Shown: in pieces, positions 1-23,694 of the stretch | Layout: every line of letters begins with the position of its first letter | Position numbering within the stretch: the first letter of the stretch is position 1 | Source of the DNA: Rickettsiales bacterium | GTDB lineage: Bacteria; Pseudomonadota; Alphaproteobacteria; Rickettsiales; SXRF01 | Direction: 5' to 3' | NCBI GenBank assembly: GCA_041396965.1 | Contig: JAWKXN010000001.1 | Location: 1,897,679 to 1,961,678, forward strand | DNA length: 64,000 nucleotides | Program-made: the position numbers and the translations under genes | The notes under the pieces: model-generated | Databases searched by the model: none | What the model was told of the DNA's origin: nothing | The model's input: only the letters and a program-made list of their open reading frames with translations

Positions 1-326
1 AGGTAATACGCCGCTATAGCAGCCTAAGAGGCAAGAAGGAACTGGCATTTGACAAGCTGCCGATGCTGGTGCGGTTTAGAGATATTAACGATCCGAAAAC
101 GGTGGAGCTTGTTGACCCGAACGATTTAGCGGCGAGTTTTGGCGAGGGTGTTAAGCTTAAATCCGCTAGCATTGAGATAACTGATGACGCCGTGACCACA
201 GGAGTGGAGAAGTATTTACCTTCATTTGGAAAAGAAACTGGTTATTTAGAATGGTTTAGAAGTTTACCTTACGGTGATAGTCGTAAGATTGGTCCATATG
301 ACTTTAAGAAAGGGACAAAAAAATGA
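1..326 (+). CDS. 3' end of a putative immunity-type protein (5' end upstream of window); paralog of 1405..2100
   Basis: Frame is open from the window edge. The last 87 aa (MLVRFRDINDPKTVELV...) align with the C-terminus of ORF 1405..2100 (MLVRFRDINDSTTVERV...). Its stop overlaps the next start (ATGA at 323). Confidence 0.5.
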   Translation, partial: VIRRYSSLRGKKELAFDKLPMLVRFRDINDPKTVELVDPNDLAASFGEGVKLKSASIEITDDAVTTGVEKYLPSFGKETGYLEWFRSLPYGDSRKIGPYDFKKGTKK

Positions 327-1414
327 CAATAAGTAATAAATTATTCAATGCTATATTAGCGATGGACTCCTATAATCGTGGTTACGATGAAGGTATTAAG
401 TTAACTGGAACTAAAGTTGGCAATGCTACGATAACGAAAGATTCAGAAGATCTTGGATTTGTTTCTGGCACTCAAGATAGGCTGGATCAAGCAGCCGGCT
501 TTTACGCTGTGGCATACACCATGCCATCCGGCAAGAAGATCATTTCTTATCGTGGCACGGACGGCAACCCTCTGGATATTGCCACCGGCTGGGTGATCGG
601 AGGTGGCTTGCTTGGCACACCTTATAACCAATCCCAGCTTGCCGTTGAGTTTTTTAACGCGGTAGCAGGCAGTGAAGATCCATATACCGCCAATATGTTC
701 ACCACCGGTCACTCTCTCGGTGGTGGGCTTGCCGGATTAGTCGCCGCCGCTTATGGTCAGCCCGCTGATATTTTTGATAATATGCCGTTTGAGTTTGCTG
801 TTTCTACCCTTATTCCTTTATTATTCGCTAGCGGTTATCCTCTTCCTGATTATTCAGCAATAACCGGCTACGCGACCACCGGCGAAGCGTTAGAATCTAT
901 CCGACTCCTGCAATCCACCCCCGTAACCGAATATAATTCATATAACAACTCGCTCGGTTCCATTGATTTACACAGCCAATCATTGCTGGTTACTCTGATG
1001 TACGGAGCTGAGAATAATCACACTGATTGGCAGGTATTTGGCGAAGAGTTCATAAATTCATTGTTTGATAATAATATCGCCCTTGCCGCCGGAGCGAACT
1101 CAATAGAAGGTACCAGAAAAGAGAAAAGTGATTTTTCAGAAATAATGAGGTCCGCCATCGCCTATAGCGTTATAGACGAAGGGACACGGGTGTTTGGCGA
1201 TACCGCTATTCGCGCTCTGTTTGATGACGCGAACGAGCTGGGCAAGGTGCTGAAGGCGGATGACCACTCAACAACTCTTAAGGATTTATCGGGTTACATC
1301 TCCGACATATTCACCCAATATGCTGGACAGTTGGCTCTGGGTAAGATATTGCAATCCACAAACCCTACCGCCGCCAACGATAATTATGAACCAAACATAA
1401 AGGTATGCGCATGA
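323..1414 (+). CDS. Orphan toxin module 1: class-3-lipase-like alpha/beta hydrolase, truncated before any RTX repeats
   Basis: N-terminus MTISNKLFNAILAMDSYNRGY and the GHSLGGGLAG nucleophile elbow are paralogous to 2103..4487. Near-identical DNA to 2985..3195 runs up to GKILQS, then a degenerate ANDNY cap and stop. Confidence 0.6.
   Translation: MTISNKLFNAILAMDSYNRGYDEGIKLTGTKVGNATITKDSEDLGFVSGTQDRLDQAAGFYAVAYTMPSGKKIISYRGTDGNPLDIATGWVIGGGLLGTPYNQSQLAVEFFNAVAGSEDPYTANMFTTGHSLGGGLAGLVAAAYGQPADIFDNMPFEFAVSTLIPLLFASGYPLPDYSAITGYATTGEALESIRLLQSTPVTEYNSYNNSLGSIDLHSQSLLVTLMYGAENNHTDWQVFGEEFINSLFDNNIALAAGANSIEGTRKEKSDFSEIMRSAIAYSVIDEGTRVFGDTAIRALFDDANELGKVLKADDHSTTLKDLSGYISDIFTQYAGQLALGKILQSTNPTAANDNYEPNIKVCA
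1373..1414 (+). repeat. Degenerate copy of the ANDNY cap element
   Basis: gccaacgataattat encodes ANDNY in frame, and the rest has diverged (EPNIKVCA*). It overlaps the start of the next small ORF. Confidence 0.45.
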
Positions 1415-2100
1415 AGAAGTTTTTAATTATCATTAGCATTGTGATACTATGCCTGTATGGAACTTATCATGCAGTTTTACCATCATCAACGGTTCGTTAT
1501 AAGCTAACCTTAAATATTGATGATAACGGCAAGCTAGTTACAGGTTATAGTGTTGTAGAAGTTTATAGGCAGGATACAACAAGAGTTTTTGGCTCTTCGT
1601 TGGGTGGCTATGGTGCCCATATTAAAGGTGAAGCGGTAGCTGTTGATTTAGGAGATAAAGGTGTGTTATTCGCCTTGCTAAAAGGTGACTCTGTTCGTAA
1701 TCCTGATAGCTATAGTAACAGTGAGCCACCATATATTATTGTTCATGCGTTTAAGTCATATTTTGAGAATAATGGTTCTATCATTGATAATATGAACAAA
1801 CTAAAACAAGACAAACCGAAAACTAGATTATCTAATAAACTCATACCTATGCTTGTAAGGTTTCGTGATATTAATGATTCCACAACGGTAGAGCGCGTTA
1901 ATCCCAATAATTTAGAAAAAGCTTTTGGTAAGGGAGTAAGGTTGGTTTCAGCAAAGCTAGAGATTACTAATGAGTCGGTTACTAGGAAGATTGAAAATGT
2001 TTTGCCGGTCTGGAATGGTAAGAAATTTTCTGAATGGAGAAAAAAAATACCGTATGGAAATTCTTTGGCTATTGATAGAATAGATTTTGAAAGGAAATAA
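1405..2100 (+). CDS. Putative immunity protein for the lipase-like module (N-terminal signal/anchor)
   Basis: Hydrophobic N-terminus (KKFLIIISIVILCLYG). The stop lies 2 nt before the ATG of 2103. A paralog sits in front of the other lipase-like gene. Confidence 0.45.
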   Translation: MRMKKFLIIISIVILCLYGTYHAVLPSSTVRYKLTLNIDDNGKLVTGYSVVEVYRQDTTRVFGSSLGGYGAHIKGEAVAVDLGDKGVLFALLKGDSVRNPDSYSNSEPPYIIVHAFKSYFENNGSIIDNMNKLKQDKPKTRLSNKLIPMLVRFRDINDSTTVERVNPNNLEKAFGKGVRLVSAKLEITNESVTRKIENVLPVWNGKKFSEWRKKIPYGNSLAIDRIDFERK

Positions 2101-2102
2101 AA

Positions 2103-4487
2103 ATGACAATAAGCAACGAACTATTTAACGCTATTTTATCTTTAGACTCCTACAATCGTGGTTACGGTACAGGAATTAATTTAACTGGCACCAAAATTGG
2201 TAATATAACTCTAGTTAGAGATTCATCCATATTACTTGGCTTAGACGGCACAACACGTTTAGATATAGACGCTGGTTTTTATGCTTCCGCCTATCAAACA
2301 AGCTCTGGTGATATTATTATTTCCTATCGTGGCACAAATGCCGAAACCGCCGCTAATTTTTTAACTGATGCAATCAATGGCTACATATTAGGTGGTGGCA
2401 TACCGGGTGATGATCAATCTGTTCTTGCTGTTCGCTTTTATAATGAGATTAAAAATCAATATCCAAACGCTAATATAAGTCTAACAGGACACTCTCTCGG
2501 CGGTGGACTAGCCGGTTATGTAGGCGGACTATACGGTAAGTCAGTTAATTTGTTTGATAACATGACATATGAAACAAGTACCATCAATGCCTATGCTAAA
2601 TCAGTTAACGCTTACATTGATCCAACTAGCGAGTATGGAGACACAAACTTATTGGCAGCTATTTATGGAAACAATCAACCTTGGGATCCAGTCTTTAGTG
2701 GCAAAGCCTTTTATTTGGAAGGTGAATTATTAGAAACTTTGTTACCTTTAAGATCTGGTCAAACTCTAACACCAGAAAAACTTGATATAACTAGCACACG
2801 TGGCGCAGTTGATTTACATAGTATCGCATTGCTCGCCTCATTGATATATGCAAAGGATAACAGCTTCATCGATTGGAAAAGCATAGGTTCTCCATTTATA
2901 GATTCTTTGTTTGATAATGAGATTGCTGGAGCTTTAGGTTTACAAGCTAATGTTAATGGATTTTACGACGCTGCGCAAAAGATGCTTTCAGCCATCGCCT
3001 ATAGCGTTATAGACGAAGGGACACGGGTGTTTGGTGATACCGCTATTCGCGCCCTGTTTAATGACGCGAACGAGCTGGGCAAGGTGTTAAAGGCTGATGA
3101 CCACTCAACAACTCTTGAGGATTTATCCGGTTATATATCCGACATATTCACCCAATATGCTGGTCAGCTTGCTTTGGGTAAGATATTGCAATCAGCGGCA
3201 TCTGTTGTGCTCGACGGAGTGCTAACATTATCAGCCGATGAGAAACTGCTTACGGTTAGTTTCAACCAAGCATTATGGCCAACTGTTAGCGGCGCTCCTG
3301 ACCAAATAGTCGGCAAAGACCGATTGCTAGACGCTCTTGCCATACCCGTATTAAAATATGTTAAGGGCGAAGGATTCTCGGCTTTACCTGGTGTTCGTGA
3401 CGCTATGAAATGGCTGTGGGATGATGAGACTGGTAGCAAGATAGATAATATAAAACTCGCCACCAAACAAAACGCTGATAACATCACCCTTGACGCGCGA
3501 GTCATAGCATCCGACAATGTCGCTCTATATGTTGATAGTGGCAATGGCAATCACGTCACCGGCTCCGCTGATAATGAGTTTATTTATGGCGGCAAGGGTG
3601 ATGATAATCTTAAGGGTGGCGGCGGCGATGATTTGCTTATCGGTGGCGCGGGAAATGACCGCATGTCTGGTGGCACAGGTAAGGATTATTATATTGGCGG
3701 TGATGGCACCGACATAGTATATTACAGCGGCAGCGCGCCACTTAACATTAATATCCAAGCCGCTGATTCCGGCAAGGTTCTAGATATTACCGCCGCCGGT
3801 GAGACCGACCGCGCGGTTCGGGTAGAAGTAATAGAAGCCGGAGTGGGAGGCGACACCATCACCCTGTCTAAGACCATTCAGCATCTTGGCGCGATAATGA
3901 TTGATGGTAACGCCGGAGTTGACACTCTTAATTATGAAAATGGTGGTAACGGTGTCGCAACTAAAATAGAAGAGATATTATCCACCTACGCCGGAGCTGA
4001 TTGGAATGGTAAAAAAGATTATATCGGCAGTATAGAAAAAATCAACTTCACCAGCCAGAATGATAAGGTAGATATTAGATTACTTGCCAACACCAAAGTA
4101 CAAGAAATCCACACCGGAGCGGGTAACGACACTGTGACAATCACCGGCTCGGCGACTGCCTTTAAGCCGGTTATCTACCTAGAAGATGGCAATGACGTGT
4201 TAGTCTCCGCGCCGAGGGGTAGTATTGTTTATGGTGGCGCGGGCGAGAATCATTACGAGGCGGGAATGGATTATATAATCGCCGATGCCGATGCTGATGA
4301 CCATATATATTATGGTGCCCGCCCGATATATGGTGGCGTGAGCTTCAACACCCAAGAATCACCATGGGCAAAGGGGATTTATGGCGAAATCATTCCCGCA
4401 CCCGCCCGTGGATCTGGAGCTGCTTGCCGCAACCCAGCCAACGATAATTACGTTGACATAAGCGTTAACACTGCTATTGCTAGTTAA
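2103..4487 (+). CDS. Orphan toxin module 2: class-3-lipase-like domain + RTX repeats + backbone, truncated and ANDNY-capped
   Basis: YRGT...GHSLGGGLAG lipase motif. GGxGxD nonapeptides are present (GGKGDDNLKGGGGDDLLIGGAGNDRMSGGTGKD). Backbone runs to ESPWAKGIYG, then IIPAPARGSGAACRNP-ANDNYVDISVNTAIAS*. No C-terminal secretion domain. Confidence 0.7.
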   Translation: MTISNELFNAILSLDSYNRGYGTGINLTGTKIGNITLVRDSSILLGLDGTTRLDIDAGFYASAYQTSSGDIIISYRGTNAETAANFLTDAINGYILGGGIPGDDQSVLAVRFYNEIKNQYPNANISLTGHSLGGGLAGYVGGLYGKSVNLFDNMTYETSTINAYAKSVNAYIDPTSEYGDTNLLAAIYGNNQPWDPVFSGKAFYLEGELLETLLPLRSGQTLTPEKLDITSTRGAVDLHSIALLASLIYAKDNSFIDWKSIGSPFIDSLFDNEIAGALGLQANVNGFYDAAQKMLSAIAYSVIDEGTRVFGDTAIRALFNDANELGKVLKADDHSTTLEDLSGYISDIFTQYAGQLALGKILQSAASVVLDGVLTLSADEKLLTVSFNQALWPTVSGAPDQIVGKDRLLDALAIPVLKYVKGEGFSALPGVRDAMKWLWDDETGSKIDNIKLATKQNADNITLDARVIASDNVALYVDSGNGNHVTGSADNEFIYGGKGDDNLKGGGGDDLLIGGAGNDRMSGGTGKDYYIGGDGTDIVYYSGSAPLNINIQAADSGKVLDITAAGETDRAVRVEVIEAGVGGDTITLSKTIQHLGAIMIDGNAGVDTLNYENGGNGVATKIEEILSTYAGADWNGKKDYIGSIEKINFTSQNDKVDIRLLANTKVQEIHTGAGNDTVTITGSATAFKPVIYLEDGNDVLVSAPRGSIVYGGAGENHYEAGMDYIIADADADDHIYYGARPIYGGVSFNTQESPWAKGIYGEIIPAPARGSGAACRNPANDNYVDISVNTAIAS

Positions 4488-4517
4488 TAAATTATTTACT
4501 CTGGGGTGTGTGGGTAG
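4437..4517 (+). repeat. ANDNY cap element, long form (tag-like codons + TAATAA + spacer)
   Basis: gccaacgataattacgttgacataagcgttaacactgctattgctagttaataaattatttactctgg... is conserved with copies at 7190, 12637 and 15583. Confidence 0.85.
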
Positions 4518-4544
4518 ATTATATAGAATATATAAGGTTTAGAT

Positions 4545-5102
4545 ATGTTGTATAAATATATAAAAAAAATATCCTTAGTTATTGTTTGTTACTTTATGGT
4601 TTCACAATCTATAGCCGCAGAGATAAGCAAGTCAGATGGCATAGAGATTTTTTCTCAAACAGAAAAGGATAGCGAAATAATACACAAAATAAAAAAACAA
4701 TTATCTATAGGAATAGATGATAAACTGCTTGCTCATCTAATTGATAAGAACAATACTAGTTACTACATAGTTGATGCACCACACTTAGTGAGACATGGTA
4801 TTGGCTATAGGAAATTAATCTTGTACAGATACTACGATAATCAATCCCAGAAATTATGGTCTTTAGAATTATCTTTTGATGCCGAATCTGGAGGATGTGG
4901 TAGCATTAGTAGAGCGAAAGCTATAGGAATTCAGACTGGTCTGCTAGGATATAATATGAAATCATTTTCCCCGCAAGATTACAATGTAAAAACTGGTACC
5001 GTTCAAATAAAACTAAATATCATGGACTGTGAGACAAGAAAAGATAAAGAAAGTCAGATTCTATTTGAAATAGGGAATAATTTTATAACTATCATAGAGT
5101 AA
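4545..5102 (+). CDS. Putative periplasmic immunity protein (signal peptide)
   Basis: Signal-like N-terminus ...VCYFMVSQSIAAE. It sits immediately upstream of toxin module 3, in the same position as the other small ORFs in the array. Confidence 0.45.
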   Translation: MLYKYIKKISLVIVCYFMVSQSIAAEISKSDGIEIFSQTEKDSEIIHKIKKQLSIGIDDKLLAHLIDKNNTSYYIVDAPHLVRHGIGYRKLILYRYYDNQSQKLWSLELSFDAESGGCGSISRAKAIGIQTGLLGYNMKSFSPQDYNVKTGTVQIKLNIMDCETRKDKESQILFEIGNNFITIIE

Positions 5103-5125
5103 ATTAGCTAATGGAGACTAAATAA

Positions 5126-7240
5126 ATGGTGTCAGTAACAGATAATTGGATTGGAATCACTAAAATTATTGGTGTGGTTTTAGCAAAAAATGAAGTTGGT
5201 AACGATTCAATTAATAATGAAGAACCTTACAAGCTATCTTATGCTGGCGGAAACAGCGGGTATAGTTTTGGCTGGAATCAACTTGATCTATCAAAAAATT
5301 CAAAGGCTATTGATCACCTCACTAATATATTAACCAATGCTATAGATCCTAATACTGGAAATCTAGTAGTAGATGATATTAACACGTTCCTTGCTAATTA
5401 CAGAAATGCGTTAATTACACATGGAATCCTTCCAAATTCTGTTATTACCCAAATAGAATTGGCACTGAGTAGTGCATATGGCAAGACATACCTTGCCAGT
5501 TTATTTGAACAGACAACATTGGAGAATATTAATTATGTACTTTCTGAGTTATACAAAGCTGGAGAGAAATATGTTTCTGCTGCTTTAGAAGATCCAAAAA
5601 TACTTATACAACTTACTGATTATCATAATCAGTTCAATATAAGTATTGGTGGAAAAATGGAGCAGTTTCTGCAAGGTAAATCTGTCACACTTACTGGAGG
5701 TACGGTACAAATATCTGGTGATTTAGATATAGATGATATTAGAAATTTTATAACTAGTACAGAATGGGCTACTAGTGGTCATATGGATGATATAAACCGC
5801 CGTTTTGGGAATATAGATGACACAGTGACACAAAATATCCCTATTGATTTAGTGGACAAGACGATAGGCGGAAGTAATAGTAGCTTTAATTTACTTGGAG
5901 CTGTTGGTTCAGCCAATATTACTTTTGGTGGATCAGGTAATGATAAATTATATGGTAGTTATCAAAGTGATGTGCTTTCTGGGGGTTCTGGAAATGATGA
6001 GTTAAGTGGTAATGATGGTGATGATCGTTTATTTGGTCATAGCGGCAATGATTTGCTGATCGGCGGCAAAGGCAATGATATTTTAGACGGCGGTGAAGAT
6101 GCCAGTAAACTAGATATTGATACAATTAGCTACGAAGACAGACTATTTGGTGTTGATGTAAAAATCACAGAACGAGGTGATAACGAAGTTGTTAACCCAT
6201 CGCTTATAATTAGCCGTGAAAATGATATAATATTAAACATAGAAAAAATCAACTTCACCAGCCAGAATGACACTGTGGAAATCAGGTTACTAGCGAGTAC
6301 ACAACTACAAGAAATCCACACCGGAGCGGGTGACGACACTGTGACAATCACCGGCTCGGCGACTGCCTTTAAGCCGGTTATCTACCTAGAGGACGGCAAT
6401 GACGTGTTAGTCTCCGCGCCGAGGGGTAGTATCGTCTATGGTGGCGCGGGCGAGAATCATTACGAGGCGGGAATGGATTATATAATCGCCGATGCCGATG
6501 CTGATGACCATATATATTATGGTGCCCGCCCGATACATGGCGGCGTGAGCTTCAACACCCAAGAATCCCCATGGGCGAAGGGGTTATATGGCGTGCGCTA
6601 CGGCAGGAACGAGGATGACGAGCTGGTTATCGTAACTCCTGACGGCAGACAAACATTCATCGCCAACTTCAACTTTGACCTAGCGGGCGAGCGCACCGCT
6701 GGCTTGCTGGTTGGTGAGGGAACGCTGGAGTTTCACCGCCTGTTGGAATCACCGAAAGGCTTTAATCTTTACGGCACGTTTGAGACGATATTCGGCTATT
6801 ACATGAAGGCGATATTCGGCATCTCGTTCTTTCCGGGCATTGACCCGCTGATACTGGATATGGATGGTGACGGGGTGGAACTGAATGCCCGTCTTGGTGT
6901 CTCCCCTTTTTATGATATTGACGCTGACGGCTTCGCCGAGCAAACGGGCTGGGCACGGGGCGATGACGCTTTCCTCGTGCGTGACCTCAACGCTAACGGG
7001 ATTATTGATGATGTCTCGGAAATGTTCGGCGATGTCACCACCTCCGGCTTTGACGCGCTTAGAGTGCTAGATAGTAATAATGACGGGGTGATTAACGCCG
7101 CTGATAATGAGTTCTCCACCCTGCTATTATGGCAAGACGTAAATGAGAATACGCTAACCGACGCCGGTGAGCTGACAAGCCTTAATGCTGCCAACGACAA
7201 TTACGTTGACATAAGCGTTAACATTGCTATTGCTAGTTAA
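5126..7240 (+). CDS. Orphan toxin module 3: unknown N-terminal domain (weak lysozyme/SLT-like motif) + RTX + backbone with most of the Asp-Pro self-processing module, ANDNY-capped
   Basis: The N-terminal ~250 aa are unique (EEPYKLSYAGGNSGYSFGWNQLDL). RTX repeats present (GGSGNDKLYG...GGKGNDILDGG). Backbone includes GIDPLILDMDGDGVELN and ends at TSLNA-ANDNYVDISVNIAIAS*. Confidence 0.65.
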   Translation: MVSVTDNWIGITKIIGVVLAKNEVGNDSINNEEPYKLSYAGGNSGYSFGWNQLDLSKNSKAIDHLTNILTNAIDPNTGNLVVDDINTFLANYRNALITHGILPNSVITQIELALSSAYGKTYLASLFEQTTLENINYVLSELYKAGEKYVSAALEDPKILIQLTDYHNQFNISIGGKMEQFLQGKSVTLTGGTVQISGDLDIDDIRNFITSTEWATSGHMDDINRRFGNIDDTVTQNIPIDLVDKTIGGSNSSFNLLGAVGSANITFGGSGNDKLYGSYQSDVLSGGSGNDELSGNDGDDRLFGHSGNDLLIGGKGNDILDGGEDASKLDIDTISYEDRLFGVDVKITERGDNEVVNPSLIISRENDIILNIEKINFTSQNDTVEIRLLASTQLQEIHTGAGDDTVTITGSATAFKPVIYLEDGNDVLVSAPRGSIVYGGAGENHYEAGMDYIIADADADDHIYYGARPIHGGVSFNTQESPWAKGLYGVRYGRNEDDELVIVTPDGRQTFIANFNFDLAGERTAGLLVGEGTLEFHRLLESPKGFNLYGTFETIFGYYMKAIFGISFFPGIDPLILDMDGDGVELNARLGVSPFYDIDADGFAEQTGWARGDDAFLVRDLNANGIIDDVSEMFGDVTTSGFDALRVLDSNNDGVINAADNEFSTLLLWQDVNENTLTDAGELTSLNAANDNYVDISVNIAIAS

Positions 7241-7275
7241 GGAATTATTTACTCTGGAGTATATGGGTTGTGATG
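7190..7275 (+). repeat. ANDNY cap element, long form
   Basis: 86-nt copy with a single TAA followed by ggaattatttactctggagtatatgggttgtgatg. Confidence 0.85.
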
Positions 7276-7307
7276 AGGAAAGTAACAAAAAGAAAGTTAT
7301 AGCACAC

Positions 7308-8282
7308 ATGAAAAAAACGTTTTTTATTTTCGTAGCAATAAATATTTTTTTAGGGCTGTGTTTTTTATCCTTTCAAACATTTGCTAATAAAGTCACGGTC
7401 AGACAACTATTTATTGAGTATTATAATCCTATCAACAGAGAATATTATACGCTTCGGCAAGGATCACCTCAGTTGAAGGAAGAGCCATATAATTATATTT
7501 TGACATCGCTCAAAACTCAGTTAGTTGCTATAGATCAGGAAACAGTTGAGTATGATAATGACCAAGCAGATTATCATGTAATATTTATAGATATACCTTA
7601 TACCTATCAAAAGGAATTTAGAAATAGAAAATTTGAAGTTCCAAATATAGATCCTCCGCTTCCAAAAAATAAATATAAAGATGATAAGAATATAACATCA
7701 TACAGGTTTGTGTCTCCATGGGTACGTGGAACTATTTACATTAAGGGTAAAAAACCGATAGGTGGAACTATTATATTCCCTATCTCTAATATGCTTCGTA
7801 TGAAAGAGTTATATTATGCTTCTCATGGCGATTGGAATAAATTCTCTAAAGGTAATCCAACTAATCTAGATGATGTAACAATGTCTTATGAGAATATTTA
7901 TCAACCAGCACTAGAGAAATACATAAGAATATTCTTAGACAGCTCTAGCGGACGTCCTACAGAGGAGCAAATTGATAAAGTATTCTCTCCTGATGGTATA
8001 CAGACATTATTTTGGGCAAGAATAGCAAGATTAGCTCCTCAAACTACAATAGTTAGATTTACTGGTGGAGGGAAGATAGTAGAGTGTTTAAGAAGATCTA
8101 AGGTTTATTATATTAACATTTATAAATATATATTAGAAGAAATATTAAAAAAAAGTATTACTGAAACTGATAATAATATTATATACAGTATAACCCCACC
8201 TGTAGAATTATTGAAGTCTATACATAACTCCAGTGGTGATTACAATTGCTTTTCAAAATACATTAAGGAGACCTCAAAATGA
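7308..8282 (+). CDS. Putative immunity protein (signal peptide), ~324 aa
   Basis: I prefer the internal start MKKTFFIFVAINIFLGLCFLSFQTFA over the track start at 7224, which reads through the cap repeat. Its stop overlaps the ATG of 8279 (ATGA). Confidence 0.45.
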   Translation: MKKTFFIFVAINIFLGLCFLSFQTFANKVTVRQLFIEYYNPINREYYTLRQGSPQLKEEPYNYILTSLKTQLVAIDQETVEYDNDQADYHVIFIDIPYTYQKEFRNRKFEVPNIDPPLPKNKYKDDKNITSYRFVSPWVRGTIYIKGKKPIGGTIIFPISNMLRMKELYYASHGDWNKFSKGNPTNLDDVTMSYENIYQPALEKYIRIFLDSSSGRPTEEQIDKVFSPDGIQTLFWARIARLAPQTTIVRFTGGGKIVECLRRSKVYYINIYKYILEEILKKSITETDNNIIYSITPPVELLKSIHNSSGDYNCFSKYIKETSK

Positions 8283-9775: not shown

Positions 9776-9779
9776 GATG
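9728..9779 (+). repeat. ANDNY cap element, short form
   Basis: gccaacgacaattacattgacataaatatttatgctaaggtgggttgagatg. It shares both ends with the long form and matches the minus-strand copy at 54190..54240. Confidence 0.8.
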
Positions 9780-12722: not shown

Positions 12723-13226
12723 AAGAAGATACTATATTGGATAGGAAGACACTGGATATTATCACTTTTTTTATTAATTGGTAGTGTTTCTTCAGGGCTT
12801 AACTATTCTGGATTTTGTATTGAGCAGGGTAGATGGCTTAGCGATGAGGAGTTTTTATTGGCTATGTTGGGTTACACAGAAGGAGATACTATACGCAATG
12901 AAGAAAGAAAAAAATTCCTTAGAGAAAACCCTGAATGCTGCCGTTTGTACAGAGGAGATACAGGTATGGTGTCAAACATAGACTGGTTGAATAGAATAAC
13001 AGGTTCTATTTATGCATCCGGTGAAGTAGACTCTAAACTTCCTGATACAGAAATATGGTATGGAACAAACCCACCTCTAGATTACTATAGAAGATACATA
13101 ACTCTAGATACTTGCGGGAAGTCATATAGTAAATTTAGCGATAAAATTACAAAACAAGACAGTGAATTATCTTACGAAATATATTTAAGAAAGAAACAAA
13201 AAGGAGTTGCTCATGACAGTTTATAA
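12720..13226 (+). CDS. Putative immunity protein (N-terminal signal/anchor)
   Basis: Starts at the cap ATG. N-terminus has HWILSLFLLIGSVSSG. The 3' end overlaps the start of toxin module 6. Confidence 0.45.
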   Translation: MKKILYWIGRHWILSLFLLIGSVSSGLNYSGFCIEQGRWLSDEEFLLAMLGYTEGDTIRNEERKKFLRENPECCRLYRGDTGMVSNIDWLNRITGSIYASGEVDSKLPDTEIWYGTNPPLDYYRRYITLDTCGKSYSKFSDKITKQDSELSYEIYLRKKQKGVAHDSL

Positions 13227-15633: not shown

Positions 15634-15669
15634 TAAATTATTTACTCTAAACTGTGGATGGGTGAGATG
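15583..15669 (+). repeat. ANDNY cap element, long form
   Basis: gcaaatgataattacgttgacataagcgttaacactgctattgctagttaataaattatttactctaaactgtggatgggtgagatg. Confidence 0.85.
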
Positions 15670-15683
15670 AAAAAAGCAACAAA

Positions 15684-16061
15684 ATGGTACAGACGATGAC
15701 AGAAAAAATATTCTTGATTTCTATTCAGATTATAGGAGTCCTATTACTATTATTCTTAACTTTTTATATCCCCTATCGCTTGGCTCTTAGAAATAAAGAA
15801 AAAAGAACAATCTTTATTAAAAATGCAGTAAGAACTGAAGGGACTATAGAAGGAATAGTTTTAGCGAATATAAAGCCTATACATTTTTCCTTGAAATATT
15901 TTTTTACCGATAAGCACGGTGGAATATACAAGGGAACTGATGATATAGGGCTATCTATATTCAAATACAAAAAAGGTCAAAAAATTACTATTTATTATGA
16001 CCCTAATAAACCAGATAAAAATATTATAGAGCACAAAGGAAAGAAGGATAGTTATGTCTAA
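15684..16061 (+). CDS. Putative membrane immunity protein of the expressed toxin
   Basis: One clear TM segment (IFLISIQIIGVLLLLFLTFYIPY). Its stop overlaps the main-gene ATG by 8 nt. Confidence 0.5.
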   Translation: MVQTMTEKIFLISIQIIGVLLLLFLTFYIPYRLALRNKEKRTIFIKNAVRTEGTIEGIVLANIKPIHFSLKYFFTDKHGGIYKGTDDIGLSIFKYKKGQKITIYYDPNKPDKNIIEHKGKKDSYV

Positions 16062-19000
16062 CATATTTGGATATTATAAAGCAGAAAATATGCCTAGAGT
16101 GACAAGCAGTGGTACAATCTCTGGGTTAAATGCATATATCGCAGCATTAGAAACTGGTCTCATAGAAGTATTAGAGTATAATAAAACTTTACCGGGCATA
16201 GCTTTACGATTTGCTTTGATCGGTGATGGTATAACAGGAGCTTCGAGCCAAACCTTAAACATAATATATAATGACGATGAAACGTTTAGCATAGATGGTT
16301 ATCTTAACAATGCTAAATTTGCGCTAACTCAAACTGCTGCTTCTACCGCTATAGCTGGAGCTATATTTCTTATAACTGGCACCTCTGTCGGTATAGCCGG
16401 AGTTATCGGTATATCCGCCGCTACCTCTTTGGTGTTTTCCGTAATAGATGGTGTAACAGATAGCTTCTATGGAATGGGAAGACCAGTTAACGTTAAATTC
16501 TACGATCAGTCTGGAGAACATGTTTCTGGTTTTTTATATCCTGATGGGTTGGACGGTTCTGCCAATCAAAAAACGACTGCCGTTCGCAATTTAATTTTTG
16601 CCGCTGGTTCAGAAATAGCCAATGGCGGCACCATTGAGATTGAGACCTCATATTTTGACACATTGCTGGATAGCTCATACACTCTTTACGATGGTTCTTT
16701 TACTAATTTTATTGTAGGAGCAAGCGCCGCAACCAGCGTTACGGATTTTTTAACAACTGGTGATGGTAAAAATCTTGAAGCGCACGCCTTCGCGCCAAAT
16801 AATCCCTCAACCGCTAAAGAATATTACTTCTTTGAGGATAATGAAGTGGCTCTTGATATACCGGTATTTATTAACGGTGTTAAAGAGGTAATAACTGTCA
16901 ATAATATTTATGAAGGGAATACAAGTAACGCCCCTGATTCAATTTATATCGGAGATGGTACAGGCAAAAACTTAATAATAAACACTGGTTTCTCACCGAC
17001 TCTTGTCGGTAATGAAAATGATGATTTAATACTTGGTGGCGGTGACGCTGAGGTGTTAAACGGAAAAGAAGGAGACGATATTTTAATCGCCGGTGGTGGC
17101 AATGACTTTCTCATCGGTGGCGAAGGCAACGATTATATAGATGGTGGTGATGGAACCGATACGCTGCAATATCTTCATAGCAATAGTTTCTTTAACAGAA
17201 CAATAAATATAAAGGAAGGTGTCGGACATGTTCCTTCCTCATTATTTCGTTTTAGTGAAACAGATTCAATATTAAATGTAGAAGAAATAGATTTTGCTGA
17301 TTCAGCGGACAACATCAATATTACATTACTCGCTAACACTGCCGTTCAGAAAATCCACGCCGGTGACGGAGACGATGAGGTATCAGTTGTTGGTTCACTG
17401 GTGGGGACATTCCCGAGAATCTTCCTTGAGAATGGCGACGATACTCTGCTCGCCGCTCCTCGTGGGAGTATCGTCTATGGCGGTAGCGGTGCTGACAAGT
17501 TTGAACTTGGCAGTGACTATCTGATAGCCGACGCTGACACCAGCGACACCATCACTTACGGCGGCAGAACAATCCATGGCGGGATTAACTTCAACACCCA
17601 AGAATCGCCATGGGCAAAGGGGTTGTATGGCGTGCGTTACGGCCGGAATGACGCTGACGAGCTGGTTATCGTCACTCCTGATGGCAGACAGACTTTCGTT
17701 GCTAACTTCAATTTTGACCTGGCGGGTGAGCGCACCGCCGGCTTGCTGGTTGGCGAGGGCAGTCTGGAGTTTTACCGCCTGTTGGAATCCCCGAAAGGCT
17801 TTAATCTTTACGGCACGTTTGAGGCGATATTCGGCTATTACATGAAGGCGATATTCGGCATCACCTTCTTTCCGGGCATTGACCCGCTGATACTGGACAT
17901 GGATGGTGACGGGGTGGAACTGAACGCCCGTCTTGGTGTCTCGCCTTTTTATGATATTGACGCTGACGGATTCGCCGAGCAAACAGGCTGGGCACGGGGC
18001 GATGACGCTTTCCTCGTGCGTGACCTCAACGCTAACGGGATTATTGATGATGTCTCAGAGATGTTCGGCGATGTCACCACCACGGGCTTTGACGCGCTTA
18101 GAGTGCTAGATAGTAATAATGACGGAGTGATTGACGCCGCTGATAATGAGTTCTCCACCCTGCTATTATGGCAAGACGTAAATGAGAATATGCTAACCGA
18201 CGCCGGTGAGCTGACAAGCCTTAATGCCGCCGGAATTACCTCCATTGATTTAAGCAGCACGCCAAGCGGTGAGCTGGTCGCCGGTAACTATGTTGACTCT
18301 GTGGGCAGCTTCACCCTAAGTGATGGCAGCACGCGTGAGATAGCCGACGTTACCTTCCGCGCCAATCAACGTGATACTATCTGGCTGGGTGATGATACGA
18401 TAGACGCGGTGGCGGCAACCCTGCCCGAACTTAAAGGATTCGGCACACTAACCGACCTGAGAATAGCCATGACCGATAGCGCGAGCTTGAAGGGGGCGGT
18501 ACAGACCGCGCTTACTCAGCTGGGAACGATTGACCTTGGGGCGATGATTAGCGCGATAACTCCGGTACTTAATGAATGGCGGGACGCGGTGCCCGCTCCT
18601 GCGGACGTACCGGGTATGGTGGCGCGCTCGGATGTGCCGATTCTCGCGATAAATGATATTAACGGCGCGCAGGTGATTGATTTTGCCTATCAAGTCAGTG
18701 ACGAGCAGGGTTCGTACTGGAAGCTGGCTAGTGGTGAGGCAGTGAAGGATTCCGGCGGGGTGGTGATTGACCGTCCGCAAGTCGCTGATGTTATGGCGCA
18801 GACTCCAACAAGCGGCACGTGGCAGACATTTTCCGGTGAGCATATCCAGTTTCTGGAGCGTTATTTAAGTGTTGAGTTGCCGCTTGGGGTGGATAATTTA
18901 GCCGGCAGTACGGCGATTGCCGCCGCCGGTGATATGCTTAACGATATGTGGGATATGCTTGGTGGCATAGCGGTGCGGCTTGCGGCGCAAGGACCACTTG

Positions 19001-22000
19001 CCTCATATTTCGCCGGAGTTGAGTATAACGCCGCTGATGACCGTTTTGTGGCGACCACTGACCAATCACTAACCCCGACTATGGAAGCGATTTTCACAGC
19101 GGCTCCGGCGGGTGACGCGACAAGCTGGCTTGCCGCGTGGAAGCCGATAATCAATGTATTCCTGCAAAGCTTTGATCGTGGGAGTGACGGGCTTAAGGTG
19201 AGTTATGGTTTTCTGTTCAGTCATATCGTGGCGGCCTATGAGAATGTCGGGCTTTCGGCGACACTCACGCAAGCGGCGGATGCTTTTGACGTGCCGGTGG
19301 ATTTAATCCGCGCCAATAGTGATGACATAAACGGAGATGGCGAGGCTAACCTTATCTATCTTGGCGCGGGAGACCAGATAGCGCGCGGCGGACATGGACC
19401 GGATAATTATATTGTCGGCAGGAATTTCGGACATGACATAATAGATGACCTTGAGAACCCGTTAAATGGCAGCCCAGACTGGCTGCGTTTCGCTCATCTT
19501 AACTCTGATGAGGTGACTATGGAGCGCAGCGGGATTGACCTTATAATCAAGGTAAACGGCACTGCTGATGAGCTGAAAATAATCGGACAATTCGCTAGGC
19601 AGCTTTCCGGCTTTGGTATTGGTGGGCTGGACGCTGATCGTGGTGTACTAGAGATAATTTTCGCTAATGGTGAGGTTTGGGACAAAATTGACATAGCGAA
19701 AGCGGTAGAAAGACACACTGATGGTGATGACCTAATTATCGGTACTGATACCATAGATTTTTTTGACGGCGGACTTGGCAATGACCGGCTTATTGGTGGC
19801 GCGGAAGGTGATATTTATCAGTTCGGGCTTGGTGATGGTCAGGACATAATAGAAGATAATATGAGCTATATAACTATGGATGCTCCTGATGTAGTTGTTT
19901 TTAAGGATGGCATAACTTTTGATATGGTGTCATTTACCCGTGATGGTTACTCACAGGATCTGGTGGTCAAAATAAACGGAACTAATGATCAGATAACCAT
20001 AAAAAACCAGTTTACTGGTACTTATACTGGTGTTTATGGTTTGCATTTCCTTACTCGTATAGAAAATTTTATATTTAGTGATGGCACTAACATATCGTGG
20101 GACGATGTTCAGGACATAATCCTAGAGTCCAACCAAACGGATGGTGATGACGAGATTTACGGCTTTACCCGTACGGATATAATTGATGGTGGTGCCGGTG
20201 ATGATTTTATGTCCGGTGGTGATGAAGGCGATCTGTACATAATGGGACTTGGTTATGGGAAGGATGTTATTGAGGACGGTAGAAGTAACGTATTAAGTGG
20301 TGATAATGATACTATACAATTCTTGGAAGGAGTTAATCCTAACGAGGTTATCATGTCACGACCAACAGTTGATGACCTAAAGCTTACCCTTATAGATGGA
20401 AGTAGTGTTCTGATAAAAGGACATTTCTACAATATAGACCAATTTACTTTCAGCCAAGATCGCATAGAATATTTTACCTTTGCTGATGGAACAGAGTGGG
20501 ATTTTAACTTTATTAAGCAACGAATGCTAGAAATCAGCTCAACTGATGGTGACGATATTATTTATGGTTATTACTTTACTGATGATGTGATCAATGCCGG
20601 AGCTGGCAATGATATAGTAAATTCTTTGAGCGGCAACTCCACCATTACCGGAGGTCTGGGTGATGATCTACTTACTGGAGGAGGAGCCGATACTTACATT
20701 TATAATCAAGGTGATGGTGTTGATACCATAGATGAGGCAGTTTTTGCCGGAACTGACCAAATAATATTTAGCGGAGACGCACTTACTTCTACTAACGTCG
20801 TTCTTACTCGCTCCTCTGATTTTAACTCCGCAACGCTTACTTTTGGTGGAGTGGATGATACTATAATACTTCCTAATCAATTTTATAATTATAACGCGGG
20901 GATTGAATATATAGTATTTTCTGACGGAGTGACTTGGACTAAACGCGACCTGCAGGATAAATATCTATCAGATAACTCAACTGATGGTGATGATATTATA
21001 ACAGGATTTGGTAGTAACATAACTCATTATGAAAATGACATAATTACTGGTGGGCTTGGCAATGATCAGATGAATGGTCTAGTTGGTGACGATATTTATA
21101 TCCATAATCAGGGCGATGGTGTTGATACAATAATTGAGGATCAGTATAGTGGGAACGATACGGTAAGATTAACCGGAGCGGCTCTTACCTCAACCAATGT
21201 GACAGTTACTCGCTCCGCAGATTTTACCAGCGCTACGCTTAGCTTTGCCGGAGTATCTGATCAGATAATACTTAAAAATCAATTTGGCTCGCATGGTGCC
21301 GGTGTAGAGTATATAGAGTTTTCTGATGGCGTGACTTGGACAAAAGATGATTTACAAATAAAATATTTAAGTGACGCATCTACTGATGGAGATGACATTA
21401 TAGTTGGTTTTGGCTCCGAGTTTAATCATAGAGTAGATGATATAATTACCGGTGGGCTTGGTAATGATGTGATGGATGGTCTTAATGGTGATGATACTTA
21501 CATTTATAATCAAGGTGATGGTGTTGATGATATATATGAAGGTCTATTTAATGGATTAGACACATTAAAGTTATATGGTGATCTACTTACTATGGATAAC
21601 GCTTTAATCACCTATTCAGAAAATTATACTAAAGTGACATTAAGCTTTAATGGCATAGATGATAAAATAATCATGAGTGGAGAACAATATCCATGGCCAG
21701 GTCTAGAAAGAATAGAATTCTCTGATGGAAAAATATGGAACACACCGAACTTTTTTGGTGGTGCCGCTTATGTTGATAATCAAGAGACATTTAACGGTAC
21801 CGTAAATAATGATGTATTTATGAGCTTTGGAGCAAATGATACATTATATGGCAATGCTGGTGATGATTATTTTGAGGGTGGAGCTGGCGCGGATACGATA
21901 GATGGTGGAACTGGTGTGGATACTGTATCTTATTTTGGCTCTATTTCTGGAGTTGCCGTTAATCTTAGCACCAATGTCAATAGTGGTGGCGATGCGCAGG

Positions 22001-23694
22001 GTGACTTGCTCTATAATATTGAAAATATTATAGGTTCTAGTTTTGCTGACAATCTATCTGGTAATCCTAGTAATAATGTTATTCATGGTGGTCTAGGTAA
22101 CGATACTCTATCTGGGGCAGTTGGCAACGACACTCTATTTGGCGATGGTGGCAATGACGTTCTTGATGGCGGTGCTGGTGGTGATTACATGGATGGTGGT
22201 GCTGGTGTTGACACTGTGTCTTATGCTTCGTCTGCGGTTGTTGTTGATATAGATCTTAGCCGTACCGGTCTGCAGGGCTGGGGAGCATCTGGTGATACGA
22301 TAGTTAACGTGGAGAATATTATCGGCTCTGACTTTAGTGATCGCCTAGCAACTTCGGTGGTTGGTGGCACTATTCATGGCGGTTTGGGTAATGACATTAT
22401 CAATGGTAGAGACGGTAGTGATACTCTTTACGGCGAGGATGGCAATGATACTATCTATGCTGGTGGTGGTGATGACATTATTGATGGCGGCGCTGGCGAT
22501 GACACCATCTATAGTAATGGCGGCACTAACCTACTGATTGGTGGTGCTGGCGCGGATTACATGAATGGTTTTGGTGGAACCGCGATTGCTAGTTACGCTG
22601 ATTCAATAGCAGCAGTAAATATTATTCTCTCCACTAATGTAAATACCGGTGGTGACGCACAGGGTGATAGCCTTGTTGGCGTACCGAACATTATCGGATC
22701 AGACTTTGATGACACTATTATCGGTGATGGCTTTGCTAACAGCCTGTATGGTGGCTTGGGAGATGACTTGCTTGCCGGTAGAGGCTTTGGTGGCAACCAT
22801 ATGGATGGTGGTGATGGTGTTGACACTGTATCTTACGCTGAATCATCACAAGTGGTAAGCATCAATCTTGATAGCACTGGCTCACAAGGCTGGGGAGCGT
22901 CTGGTGATACTCTGGTCAGTATAGAAAATCTTATCGGCTCAGCTTATAATGATACTCTCGCCGCAAAAAGCAGTGGTAGTGTCATCCATGCTGGCAGCGG
23001 TAACGACACCATCAATGGTAGAGCTGGCAGTGATACTATTTATGGCGAGAATGGTAATGATACTATCTACGCGGGAGCTGGCAATGATACTGTCTATGGT
23101 GGTGCTGGCGATGACCTTATTTACAGTCAAGCTGGAGATAATCTGATAGTTGGTGGCGCGGGAGCTGATACCATTAACGGTTTTACTGGAATATCCACCG
23201 TATCTTACGCTGATTCATCTGCGGCGGTAAACATCAATCTTGCCACTAACGCCAACACAGGTGGCGACGCGCAGGGTGACGTTCTGCAAGGTGTAACTAA
23301 CATCATCGGCTCTGACTTCGCCGATAACCTCACCGGTGATTATAAAAATAATACTATAACCGGTGGCAGCGGTGTTGACACCATAACCGGTGGTAGTGGC
23401 TTTGATATATTCAAATATCTGGCAGATACCGATTCCGGCACTGGCGCGGGCAATCGTGATATAATCACTGACTTCAGCCACGCGCAAGGCGATAAGATTG
23501 ACCTGTCAGCCTTCGCCGGTGACTTCATATTCATGGGAACAAATAACTTCTCCGCCACGGCAAATGAGGTTAATTACTCACAATCCGGTGGTAACACAAT
23601 AATCGCCGTAGACTCCGACGCTAACGGACTCACCGACTTCGAGATACAACTCGCAGGGTTGCATGCGATGGTGGCTGGCGATTTCTTATTGTAG
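16054..23694 (+). CDS. Full-length 2546-aa RTX type I secretion substrate with a pore-former-like N-terminal domain, self-processing module, tandem HCBP-related repeats, a large RTX block and a C-terminal secretion signal
   Basis: The N-terminus is homologous to 10357..12687. Many GGxGxD nonapeptides. Contains [13 protein letters not shown]. The C-terminus ...[19 protein letters not shown] is typical of T1SS substrates. A hairpin terminator follows. Confidence 0.9.
   Translation: [2546 protein letters not shown]
17881..18420 (+). other. Putative Ca2+-dependent Asp-Pro self-processing module (FrpC/ApxIVA clip-and-link type)
   Basis: [17 protein letters not shown]...[40 protein letters not shown]...[23 protein letters not shown]...LWQDVNEN...[17 protein letters not shown] matches my recollection of the SPM consensus. 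Asp codon 17881, Pro codon 17884. The extent is approximate. Confidence 0.6.
19476..21750 (+). repeat. Six tandem ~125-aa haemolysin-type calcium-binding-related repeats within the main gene
   Basis: Recurrent pattern D.(I/L).F......(D/T).V...R.G.DL.I...G..D.I.I.N.F......IE.I.F(A/S)DG..W. Units 4 and 5 are the most similar pair. Confidence 0.7.
21800..23415 (+). repeat. C-terminal RTX nonapeptide region organised as alternating higher-order units
   Basis: Five units of the form VSY..S...V.(I/L)....(NVN(S/T)GGDAQGD or G.[9 protein letters not shown])...(I/V)(E/P/T)N(I/L)IGS.(F/Y).D.L, separated by GGxGxD runs. Confidence 0.75.

Follow-up and report, generated by a model that had tools for sequence, protein, structure and literature searches.

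We analyzed a stretch of 64,000 nucleotides (hereafter the window) from contig JAWKXN010000001.1 of assembly GCA_041396965.1 (Rickettsiales bacterium; positions 1,897,679 to 1,961,678 of the forward strand), which opens with a tandem array of genes of the repeats-in-toxin (RTX) type. The array (1-23694, plus strand) consists of seven consecutive pairs of open reading frames (ORFs), all co-oriented, in each of which a small ORF of 125-352 amino acids (I1 to I7) precedes a large one (U1 to U7), the two overlapping by 4-20 nt or being separated by a gap of no more than 23 nt. Seven co-oriented units of this kind had been proposed in a preliminary description of the sequence, and the ORF coordinates bear the proposal out. 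Because the window begins within the first small ORF, the array has at least seven units and may be longer. All 13 of its complete ORFs are intact. In outline, the large proteins begin with a variable N-terminal domain, followed by RTX repeats and by a backbone that is shared among units and carries a self-processing module (SPM) with an Asp-Pro site; the last protein continues into a long RTX carrier with a target domain for a type I secretion system (T1SS), whereas the six short ones end in a conserved peptide that we call the NDN tail. The features of the array are as follows.

1-326, plus strand: I1, first small partner ORF, represented by its 3′ part only and 49% identical to I2 in the C-terminal part of the latter
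323-1414, plus strand: U1, a 363-aa lipase unit cut within its N-domain, aligning to residues 1-364 of U2, with NDN tail ANDNYEPNIKVCA (stop)
1405-2100, plus strand: I2, 231 aa, with an N-terminal hydrophobic anchor; putative partner or immunity protein of the lipase
2103-4487, plus strand: U2, lipase N-domain, RTX block, backbone to about residue 526 of U7, and a long NDN tail, IIPAPARGS...ANDNYVDISVNTAIAS (stop)
4545-5102, plus strand: I3, 185 aa, with a signal-peptide-like N-terminus; no family match
5126-7240, plus strand: U3, an N-domain of about 260 aa of unknown kind, RTX repeats, backbone, Asp-Pro, SPM cut at about residue 734 of U7, and NDN tail
7224-8282, plus strand: I4, likely start at 7308 (MKKTFF..., signal-peptide-like)
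8279-9775, plus strand: U4, HExxH (HELEH) N-domain, RTX repeats, backbone to about residue 526 of U7, and tail ...ANDNYIDINIYAKVG (stop)
9759-10370, plus strand: I5, a 203-aa membrane ORF with at least two transmembrane-like segments
10357-12687, plus strand: U5, N-domain with two transmembrane-like helices, RTX repeats, backbone, Asp-Pro, SPM cut at about residue 671 of U7, and NDN tail
12720-13226, plus strand: I6, 168 aa, a homolog of the ORF upstream of apxIVA
13207-15633, plus strand: U6, ApxIVA-N-like domain, backbone, complete SPM (to about residue 815 of U7), and NDN tail
15684-16061, plus strand: I7, a 125-aa transmembrane protein matching DUF3592 (Pfam, E=6.7e-6, above cut-off)
16054-23694, plus strand: U7, N-domain with two transmembrane-like helices, short RTX block, backbone, SPM, an HCBP_related/RTX carrier of about 1700 aa, and a T1SS C-terminal target domain
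17344-18497, plus strand: the shared backbone (homology arm) in U7, repeated in U2 to U6 at 86-93% identity (blastn and sliding window; repeat families D1-D6)
17881-18369, plus strand: the SPM of U7, beginning with Asp610-Pro611 (phmmer against 6SJW/6SJX)
23458-23661, plus strand: the T1SS C-terminal target domain of U7 (TIGR03661), similar to the serralysin C-terminus and ending ...GDFLL (stop)

The distribution of recognizable domains agrees with the earlier statement that only the last unit reaches a carrier and a C-terminal secretion signal. The long RTX carrier, with 10 HemolysinCabind (E=4e-67) and five HCBP_related (E=9e-42) stretches by Pfam, is found only in U7 (2546 aa), as is a T1SS C-terminal target domain recognized by a curated model (TIGR03661; 22 bits, the cut-off being 17.6), and U7 ends in a serralysin-like C-terminus. 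For U2 to U6 and for a 691-aa RTX protein encoded elsewhere in the window (see below), a search of NCBIfam and Pfam for curated T1SS C-terminal signal models gave only RTX-repeat matches. Other parts of the preliminary description needed amendment. RTX repeats and a shared backbone had been attributed to every unit; the backbone is indeed present in U2 to U7, and Pfam scored repeats in U2, U3, U4, U5, and U7 and none in U6, but U1 has neither. Likewise, of the six upstream units said to stop inside the backbone, U2 to U6 are cut there, but an in-frame NDN tail follows the cut, and U1 is cut within its lipase domain. Nor does each unit have an N-terminal domain of its own kind: five families are represented, U1 and U2 being 51% identical and U5 and U7 being related. 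A hydrophobic N-terminal segment (of the signal-peptide, anchor, or multi-transmembrane kind) is present on every complete small ORF, I2 to I7, that of I6 being slightly under the threshold used and the N-terminus of I1 lying outside the window. On the large ORFs, U1 to U7, no N-terminal signal was found.

It is the backbone that places the locus in a known family. Residues 608-772 of U7 match the structures of the FrpC SPM (6SJW/6SJX; E=5e-31, phmmer), the scissile Asp610-Pro611 is encoded at nucleotides 17881-17886, and the tryptophan positions matching W451 and W519 of FrpC are kept in the alignment. The module is also present, in part, in U3 and U5 and, complete, in U6. Because the backbone carries an FrpC-type SPM with its Asp-Pro site, we regard the array as an FrpC/ApxIVA "clip-and-link" RTX locus. 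In FrpC and ApxIVA, binding of Ca2+ leads to cleavage of the Asp-Pro bond and leaves a reactive anhydride on the freed N-terminal fragment (PMC7078468; PMC3034196), and the SPM of U7 is predicted to be a module for Ca2+-dependent Asp-Pro cleavage and Asp-Lys cross-linking. At the DNA level, homology between units begins at nucleotide 17344 of U7 (residue 431) and ends at the truncation point of each unit, the RTX block and N-domain 5′ of that position being unit specific. U6 shares 1157 bp with U7 at 93% identity, the last 330 nt or so being 100% identical (blastn), and the stretches shared by U5 (725 bp, 90%), U3 (660 bp, 93%), U4 (290 bp, 88%), and U2 (57 bp, 86%) are successively shorter, U2 having more in common with U3 and U4. 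Identities of 86-93% overall and 100% locally are far above chance. On the scale of U7 the truncation points fall before the Asp-Pro site in U2 and U4 (about residue 526), in the middle of the SPM in U5 (about 671), late in the SPM in U3 (about 734), and past it in U6 (about 815). At window positions 18001-20000, where the long gene continues past its SPM, the G+C content is 0.51; elsewhere in the window it is 0.36-0.44.

All six short genes run in frame into the NDN tail (...ANDNY(V/I)D...stop), which is 9-16 residues long. It has the form ...ANDNYVDISVNTAIAS in U2, U3, U5, and U6, ...ANDNYIDINIYAKVG in U4, and ...ANDNYEPNIKVCA in U1, and a longer version, starting IIPAPARGS or LSPAPERGS, is found in U2, U4, and U5. 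The tail resembles half an RTX repeat. Its DNA forms part of a junction repeat of about 50-90 nt, copies of which are as follows.

12638-12727, plus strand: junction repeat (repeat family D12) running from the NDN tail and its stop through a promoter-like TTAACA-17-TAAATT and a GGAG to where the next small ORF starts
4438-4527, 7191-7280, and 15584-15673, plus strand: other copies, by alignment
1373-1414 and 9726-9778, plus strand: shorter or diverged copies, by alignment

Promoter-like matches lie in the junctions at 4465 and 12665. An integron (attC-type) cassette boundary was considered and rejected: the junction repeat folds no better than shuffled sequences (z=+0.97) and, unlike integron cassette arrays, has no hairpin-forming boundary. 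Intrinsic terminators between units were rejected as well, there being none at the junctions and counts being at chance level. No recombinase was found among those ORFs downstream of the array that were scanned (not every one of them was), the region upstream being outside the window.

To place the tail in a wider setting we drew on a genome scan with a four-sequence alignment of the SPM, which returned at least 551 genomic stretches; 80 loci were kept, the source genome not being among these (loci outside the window are designated below by L and a number). Six-frame scans of the window and of all fetched loci for [AG]NDN followed by 7-13 residues and a stop yielded 20 instances of the tail (in the window and in L001, L003, L083, L084-86, L088/89, and L100), and 20 of the 20 were in frame with the upstream backbone or SPM, one of them (in L001) carrying a later frameshift. 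Because stop codons are present in each of the three frames of the tail DNA, termination would not depend on frame, and by chance only about one-third of the tails would be expected in frame. When the same pattern was run against 1972 long ORFs, all 17 matches were array units and unrelated ORFs gave none. Between organisms, the codons for A-N-D-N vary synonymously (GCC/GCA/GCT/GCG, AAC/AAT, GAC/GAT). Within the window purifying selection on the tail protein was not evident, the changes in the U5 tail being mostly nonsynonymous; the argument at the protein level therefore rests on the comparison across organisms, which suggests that the tail is probably translated and functional or constrained as protein. 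In metagenomes, the tail DNA pattern found no match, and the backbone protein retrieved none but distant relatives, among which one had an NDN-tailed unit.

The same tail occurs at a second RTX locus of the window, on the minus strand, which also contains the T1SS genes.

56751-57254, minus strand: HlyC-family toxin acyltransferase (Pfam HlyC, E=1.1e-34), upstream of the 691-aa RTX gene
56281-56754, minus strand: small lipoprotein ORF (lipobox LLAAC), between the HlyC gene and the 691-aa RTX gene
54193-56268, minus strand: second RTX toxin, of 691 aa, containing a hydrophobic region rich in Gly and Ala, RTX repeats, and an NDN-tail C-terminus
53617-53806, minus strand: remnant of a U7-type 3′ end (...GDFLL, stop), 86% identical over 190 nt to 23506-23695
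48861-50564, minus strand: PrtD-type ABC transporter (TIGR01842, 639 bits against a cut-off of 510)
47434-48864, minus strand: HlyD-type adaptor (TIGR01843, 413 bits against a cut-off of 209)

The order on the minus strand between 47434 and 57254 is HlyC, lipoprotein ORF, 691-aa RTX toxin, a LuxR/LuxI pair, a helix-turn-helix gene, PrtD-type ABC, and HlyD adaptor. RTX cytolysin operons do not usually have a lipoprotein gene interposed between hlyC and the toxin gene. The C-terminus of the 691-aa protein, ...SANDNYIGLNIYAKLG (stop), is homologous to the NDN tail. The tail DNA of U4 (9726-9778) is 94% identical over 53 nt to 54190-54242, and the likeness to other junctions extends beyond the stop. 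Between the 691-aa RTX gene and the remnant at 53617-53806, downstream of it, there are about 385 nt, in which an I6-like ORF starts; the remnant looks like the trace of a deleted long-form unit. Because a U7-type 3′ remnant follows the 691-aa gene, the second locus, too, would once have consisted of a short unit and a long unit. Downstream of the adaptor gene, at 45826-47010 (minus strand), is a 394-aa ORF with a signal-peptide-like start and mostly low-complexity repeats rich in Q, R, K, and E (QQQQRMMQDQMRRQQE...), for which there was no family match.

What does the tail do? Since a conserved extreme C-terminus sits on otherwise signal-less RTX proteins near T1SS genes, its role would most simply be that of an export signal, and we put at roughly even the chance that the short forms are exported through it. 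An alternative, close to the preliminary description of the short units as an orphan store, is that the six upstream units are nonexported 5′ cassettes, of which the immunity genes matter daily and the toxins serve as a recombination reservoir, the tail simply traveling with the cassette. The short units do lack the carrier and TIGR03661, their truncation points are arbitrary (including mid-SPM and within the lipase domain), and their homology arms of 290-1157 bp are 88-100% identical to the long gene. Several properties of the tail itself fit such a store and count against an export function. It is no described secretion signal and matches no curated T1SS C-terminal model; in the 80 genome loci, none of the full-length SPM genes carried it; and what follows it is always another unit, with its leader, or a unit remnant, so that it could be inherited baggage of the cassette boundary. 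The DNA of tail and leader has its counterpart, by homology, at the RTX gene at 54193-56268, in the 3′ end of that gene and the flank downstream of it, and there is short Ala/Gly-Asn microhomology between the junction sites and the start of the tail. Moreover, truncated units in distant genomes (L045, L054, L065, L066, and Kingella L087) have no NDN tail, and frameshifts in the Kingella array indicate decay. A silent store does not readily account, however, for 20 of 20 tails being in frame or for synonymous variation of their codons across organisms, nor for the intactness of all six short ORFs of the window and their partner ORFs. U2 and U4, furthermore, have the full layout of classical T1SS enzymes (catalytic domain, RTX block, and C-terminal peptide), and nothing other than the shared tail could serve the HlyC-dependent toxin as an export signal. 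Because the tails are in frame, conserved at the protein level, and common to a T1SS-linked RTX toxin, the short genes are probably not silent orphans, and we consider a purely silent store unlikely, if still a serious contender.

We turn now to the variable N-domains, which make up the first 190-440 residues of the large proteins and belong to five families on one backbone: lipase (U1 and U2), HExxH (U4), two-helix membrane (U5 and U7), ApxIVA-N-like (U6), and a family of unknown kind (U3). The same N-domains are also found on other SPM proteins elsewhere. The lipases have a GHSLGG motif and match Mbeg1-like and Lipase_3 families. A lipase profile from 10 loci had as its best solved relative a type VI secretion system (T6SS) phospholipase, Tle (7UBZ_B, E=8e-9), with fungal lipases at 5e-5, the similarity to Tle spanning about 115 residues at the nucleophile elbow. 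Tle of Enterobacter cloacae is an antibacterial phospholipase, and the use of a signal-sequence-deleted Tli in the published methods implies an exported immunity protein (PMC11470151). At least one warhead family, the lipase, resembles an antibacterial effector. The U6 N-domain is homologous to the N-terminus of ApxIVA (E=6e-29), and a homolog of the U4 N-domain forms the N-terminus of an SPM protein in Azonexus; a sequence search of the Protein Data Bank (PDB) gave no match for U4, nor did Pfam or the PDB for U3. The N-domains of U5 and U7 have two transmembrane-like helices near residues 90-130 (a hydrophobic helical hairpin). A profile of this domain, searched against 1.8 billion representatives, found 27 relatives, nearly all with the domain at the N-terminus; RTX repeats were present in nine of the nine that were domain-scanned, one of which also had an RHS repeat. 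An AlphaFold model of the U7 N-domain (from a three-sequence alignment) had a local confidence (pLDDT) of 41 and was not used for a fold search. For one unit of L088 (2764-4356), the N-domain falls just short of matching TseH, a family of T6SS effectors (E=7.7e-6; 26.3 bits, the cut-off being 27).

The small upstream ORFs recur together with particular N-domains. A member of the I1/I2 family lies directly 5′ of a lipase domain in seven loci: L001, L007 (Afipia), L010 (Micavibrio), L015 (Bradyrhizobium), L016, L068 (Caulobacter), and L072. I6 is similar to the ORF upstream of apxIVA in Actinobacillus pleuropneumoniae (L082, 7496-7972; E=3e-5), with NPxCC and DxCGKS motifs in common, and an I6-like ORF occurs twice with U6-like domains in L001, one copy being 75% identical. 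In L088 and L089, a homolog of I7 (E=1e-6) lies 5′ of what is the only gene closely resembling U7, and a homolog of I4 follows a tailed unit in L083 (E=9e-10). Thus, three pairings of small gene and N-domain recur in unrelated genomes: the lipase pair, the ApxIVA-N/ORF1-like pair (L001 and A. pleuropneumoniae), and I7 with the U7 N-domain (L088). More generally, an adjacent, co-oriented small ORF lies upstream of 69 of 77 SPM genes in the genome loci, and one with a hydrophobic N-terminus adjoins 52 of the 77, as against 35 of 414 control ORFs in the same loci. Judged by position and similarity, the small upstream ORF is the FrpD-FrpC and ORF-ApxIVA arrangement generalized across the family, and we infer that the small ORFs encode cognate immunity or partner proteins.

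An alternative view of the same pairs is that the N-terminal fragments target a eukaryotic host, that the small ORFs encode surface anchors, chaperones, or activators, and that the array diversifies host-interaction or antigenic types. FrpD, a surface lipoprotein, binds the N-terminus of FrpC with a Kd of about 0.2 nM, and the fragment released from FrpC by clipping forms covalent links with host proteins. Deletion of the SPM of ApxIVA attenuates virulence in pigs (PMC7078468), and the ORF upstream of apxIVA, the homolog of I6 in a pair homologous to I6/U6, is reported to be needed for the hemolytic/CAMP activity of recombinant ApxIVA (PMC3034196). The source assembly carries a Rickettsiales label, and the HlyC-activated RTX toxin of the window carries the same tail as the short units. 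HlyC-activated RTX toxins usually have eukaryotic cells as targets. Set against a host-directed role are the occurrence of the same architecture in lineages best known as free-living (Limnohabitans, Hydrogenophaga, Sulfurovum, Bradyrhizobium, and cyanobacteria), the resemblance of N-domains to antibacterial T6SS effectors (Tle and TseH-like), and the fact that exported small proteins and enzymatic warheads co-vary strictly one to one, the hallmark of immunity pairs. In addition, meningococcal frp and T1SS mutants were not attenuated (2017 review). On this evidence a host-directed or adhesive function for the array strikes us as rather improbable.

Stacks of similar design are present in other genomes. 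A second SPM match was found in 11 of the 80 kept loci; stacks are present in several of these 11 and in additional loci obtained otherwise. Truncated units with their own small ORFs lie 5′ of a full-length gene in L045 (Limnohabitans), L054 (Azospirillum), L065 (Hydrogenophaga), L066 (Sulfurovum), and L003; the Hydrogenophaga stack has T1SS-like genes downstream. In L061 (Thermodesulfobacteriota) there are three units, the contig end hiding whether the last is full length. Kingella kingae PYKK081 (L087; JH621344.1, 134649-155335) has five units of small lipoprotein and truncated SPM gene plus a remnant, all in the same orientation, 5′ of a 1278-aa SPM-RTX gene and flanked by insertion sequence fragments. 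Four of these truncated units share the end point ...INSFDISGSLKAD (stop) and the fifth ends ...GYAELTSNVK (stop); one is frameshifted, and others contain sequence gaps. L088 and L089 have at least six units, in identical order in two samples, no full-length gene being visible on their contigs. Short units or SPM remnants next to partner ORFs are found in L083, L084, and L001. The last of these (a JGI 3300059061 contig, 3530-18678) has three short units (one lipase and two ApxIVA-N-like) and no long-form gene, is flanked by large serine recombinase genes with ParB/RepB, Fic, and helix-turn-helix/M78 genes adjoining, and may be a mobile element with short units only. In L084 (6916-17280), a tyrosine integrase gene lies directly 5′ of SPM remnants (one ending ANDNFNISACAICA, stop), of a 255-aa small ORF, and of a gene for a metzincin-type N-domain, which is split from its 1801-aa SPM-RTX continuation. 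From the serine recombinases flanking L001 and the tyrosine integrase beside L084 it would follow that some stacks ride on mobile elements. Because relatives differ in unit content and order, the locus type is not fixed, in agreement with the variation that the preliminary description had led us to look for.

A further series of observations comes from Neisseria, Kingella, Eikenella, and Suttonella, in which many ORFs of 100-300 aa, some on complete genomes, are little beyond an SPM; one cluster of such ORFs in N. meningitidis is named "bacteriocin, partial" by NCBI. These small SPM ORFs of the Neisseriaceae are probably remnants of similar stacks. The region 5′ of frpC in N. meningitidis MC58 presumably carries alternating annotations "FrpC operon protein" and "FrpA/C-related protein."

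The recurrence of stacks also speaks to the possibility, raised at the outset, that the truncated ORFs are an assembly artifact, or else decaying tandem duplicates. The source is a metagenome-assembled genome (MAG), and the locus contains near-identical repeats of 0.3-1.2 kb. Yet every unit is distinct in its N-domain and partner sequences and in the position of its junction, 13 of 13 complete ORFs are intact, and the same grammar appears in independent assemblies, including those of the isolates Kingella kingae PYKK081 and Limnohabitans JirII-31, and in identical order in two samples. We therefore think it most improbable that the array is debris or an artifact.

Taking together the anatomy of the array, the homologies of its parts, the T1SS genes, the in-frame tails, and the recurrence of pairings and stacks in other genomes, all of which are established, we favor, with somewhat better than even confidence, the reading that the array is a tandem battery of at least seven toxin modules of the FrpC/ApxIVA branch, exported by type I secretion, in which the short forms double as a recombinable store. 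The battery would operate in the following way. Each small gene, in the position of FrpD or ApxIV-ORF1, would encode an exported or membrane partner, to which the RTX effector gene would be translationally coupled. U7 would be exported unfolded by the PrtD-type T1SS, whereupon extracellular Ca2+ would fold the SPM and the Asp610-Pro611 bond would be cut, freeing a 610-residue effector fragment (with the membrane-inserting domain) that bears a reactive C-terminal anhydride. This fragment would act on the envelope of neighboring cells. Kin would be protected by their periplasmic or membrane partners; I7, a membrane protein, would guard the producer of U7, and the other partners would protect against the lipase, HExxH, and other warheads of kin or of the cell's own short forms, which would be exported in their own right through the NDN tail. 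Finally, because the short forms share 57-1157 bp, 86-100% identical, with the long gene, any stored effector and partner gene could move onto the carrier: recombination in arms of 0.3-1.2 kb would fuse an upstream warhead to the carrier and delete the units between.

In addition to the properties of the tail discussed above, several points weigh against the battery. Toxicity, immunity, export of the short forms, cleavage, and recombination are all predictions from sequence. I3, I4, and I5 match no described family, no small ORF matches a known immunity family, and the similarity of I5 to I7 was not significant (E=0.2). The N-domains of U3 and U4 likewise match no described family in family and PDB searches. 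The mid-cut SPMs of U3 and U5 cannot work. The T1SS genes lie 24 kb from the array, and no outer-membrane component was identified in the window. The MAG being labeled Rickettsiales (an NCBI label), host-directed effectors are also plausible there. Roles in adhesion or virulence have been put forward for FrpC/FrpD and ApxIVA, and the ORF that lies upstream of apxIVA is reported as needed for ApxIVA activity and not as an inhibitor (PMC3034196).

How does the proposed battery compare with known systems? FrpC, FrpA, and ApxIVA have been known since the 1990s. FrpC and FrpA of N. meningitidis have the same layout (a variable N-domain, then an SPM with Asp-Pro, RTX repeats, and T1SS export), their N-termini are unrelated to each other, and a small exported protein, FrpD, which binds FrpC at its N-terminal domain, is encoded directly upstream. 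The published model for FrpC/FrpD, unlike ours, is adhesion, and stacks are not described in the accessible papers; the likeness drawn here is one of arrangement and SPM. A 2017 review put the N-terminal variability down to immune pressure and favored adhesion, and the function of the FrpC/ApxIVA family has been given as unknown (PMC3034196). ApxIVA, which shares with the window both the SPM and RTX repeats and the homology of U6 and I6 to its N-terminus and upstream ORF, differs in forming a single unit without a stack (L082).

A further parallel is the Stenotrophomonas effector Smlt3024, a substrate of the X-type IV secretion system (X-T4SS), which is homologous to N-domains of many RTX proteins and whose inhibitor Smlt3025 has an FrpD-like fold; FrpC/FrpD was proposed in 2019 to be a T1SS toxin/immunity pair (PMC6759196). 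Here the secretion system is another one, arrays are not mentioned (PMC6759196), and the likeness to the window is by way of the published description only. The pair Tle/Tli of Enterobacter cloacae (7UBZ) resembles the window in its lipase, whereas the I2 family, searched as a profile against solved proteins in the PDB, showed no detectable similarity. Classical T1SS enzymes (serralysins and LipA/PueA-type lipases) share with U2 and U4 the sequence of hydrolase domain, RTX block, and short C-terminal region, and the ABC transporter of the window is of their PrtD type, but the NDN tail is no recognized target domain, the catalytic domains are unrelated to those of serralysin and LipA, and an upstream partner gene is present here.

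The most instructive comparison is with the contact-dependent inhibition (CDI; CdiA-CT/CdiI), Rhs, and MafB systems. As far as these are covered in the available parts of the sources, they, too, combine a conserved delivery part with swappable toxin domains and an adjacent cognate small gene, their truncated extra units keep a recombinable conserved stretch, and autoproteolytic release of the toxin is part of their logic. In the present array the toxin is N-terminal, the partner and the extra units lie upstream, and export is by a T1SS; release would be by a Ca2+-triggered, Asp-Pro self-cleaving module; and the extra units have an in-frame, conserved C-terminal tail. The order of the ORFs thus upholds the description of the locus as a mirror image of CDI, Rhs, and MafB. 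An accompanying remark was that no described T1SS array of this kind was known to its author. The searchable literature, outside which most subscription journals lie, described neither upstream stacks nor the NDN tail, nor did it cast the SPM as a device for releasing toxin, and the available part of a 2012 survey of polymorphic toxins mentions T1SS only for classical RTX toxins. The FrpC/ApxIVA family and the 2019 toxin/immunity proposal, on the other hand, were already known.

We offer tentatively, and with some doubt, a broader hypothesis: that the SPM-RTX family is a phylum-spanning, mirror-image polymorphic T1SS toxin system in which the SPM frees the warhead in response to Ca2+, the partners confer immunity, and displaced 5′ fragments become live secreted short toxins by virtue of the NDN tail, a portable export signal of no more than 16 residues. 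The co-variation of partners and warheads, the antibacterial-like warheads, and the presence of stacks in many phyla, including in the pediatric pathogen Kingella kingae, make the toxin/immunity hypothesis directly testable. If it were true, the concept of polymorphic toxins would extend, with reversed polarity, to type I secretion, the clip-and-link module would gain a biological role as a toxin-release device, and a large catalog of new toxin/immunity pairs would result. Should the NDN tail prove to direct export, it would rank with the shortest T1SS signals known and be useful as a secretion tag.

Finally, we note other features of the window. Adjoining the 3′ side of the array, at 24752-27741 (minus strand), are genes for an ABC ATPase of the MacB type, a permease (FtsX/MacB), and an adaptor of the HlyD family, for which no link to the array was established. 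The interval 28752-31844 encodes a GGDEF response regulator and a histidine kinase. At 37927-41684 (minus strand), beside glmS, are two genes of the kind involved in poly-N-acetylglucosamine (PNAG)-type exopolysaccharide, one of them polysaccharide deacetylase/glycosyl-hydrolase-like and the other encoding a family-2 glycosyltransferase.

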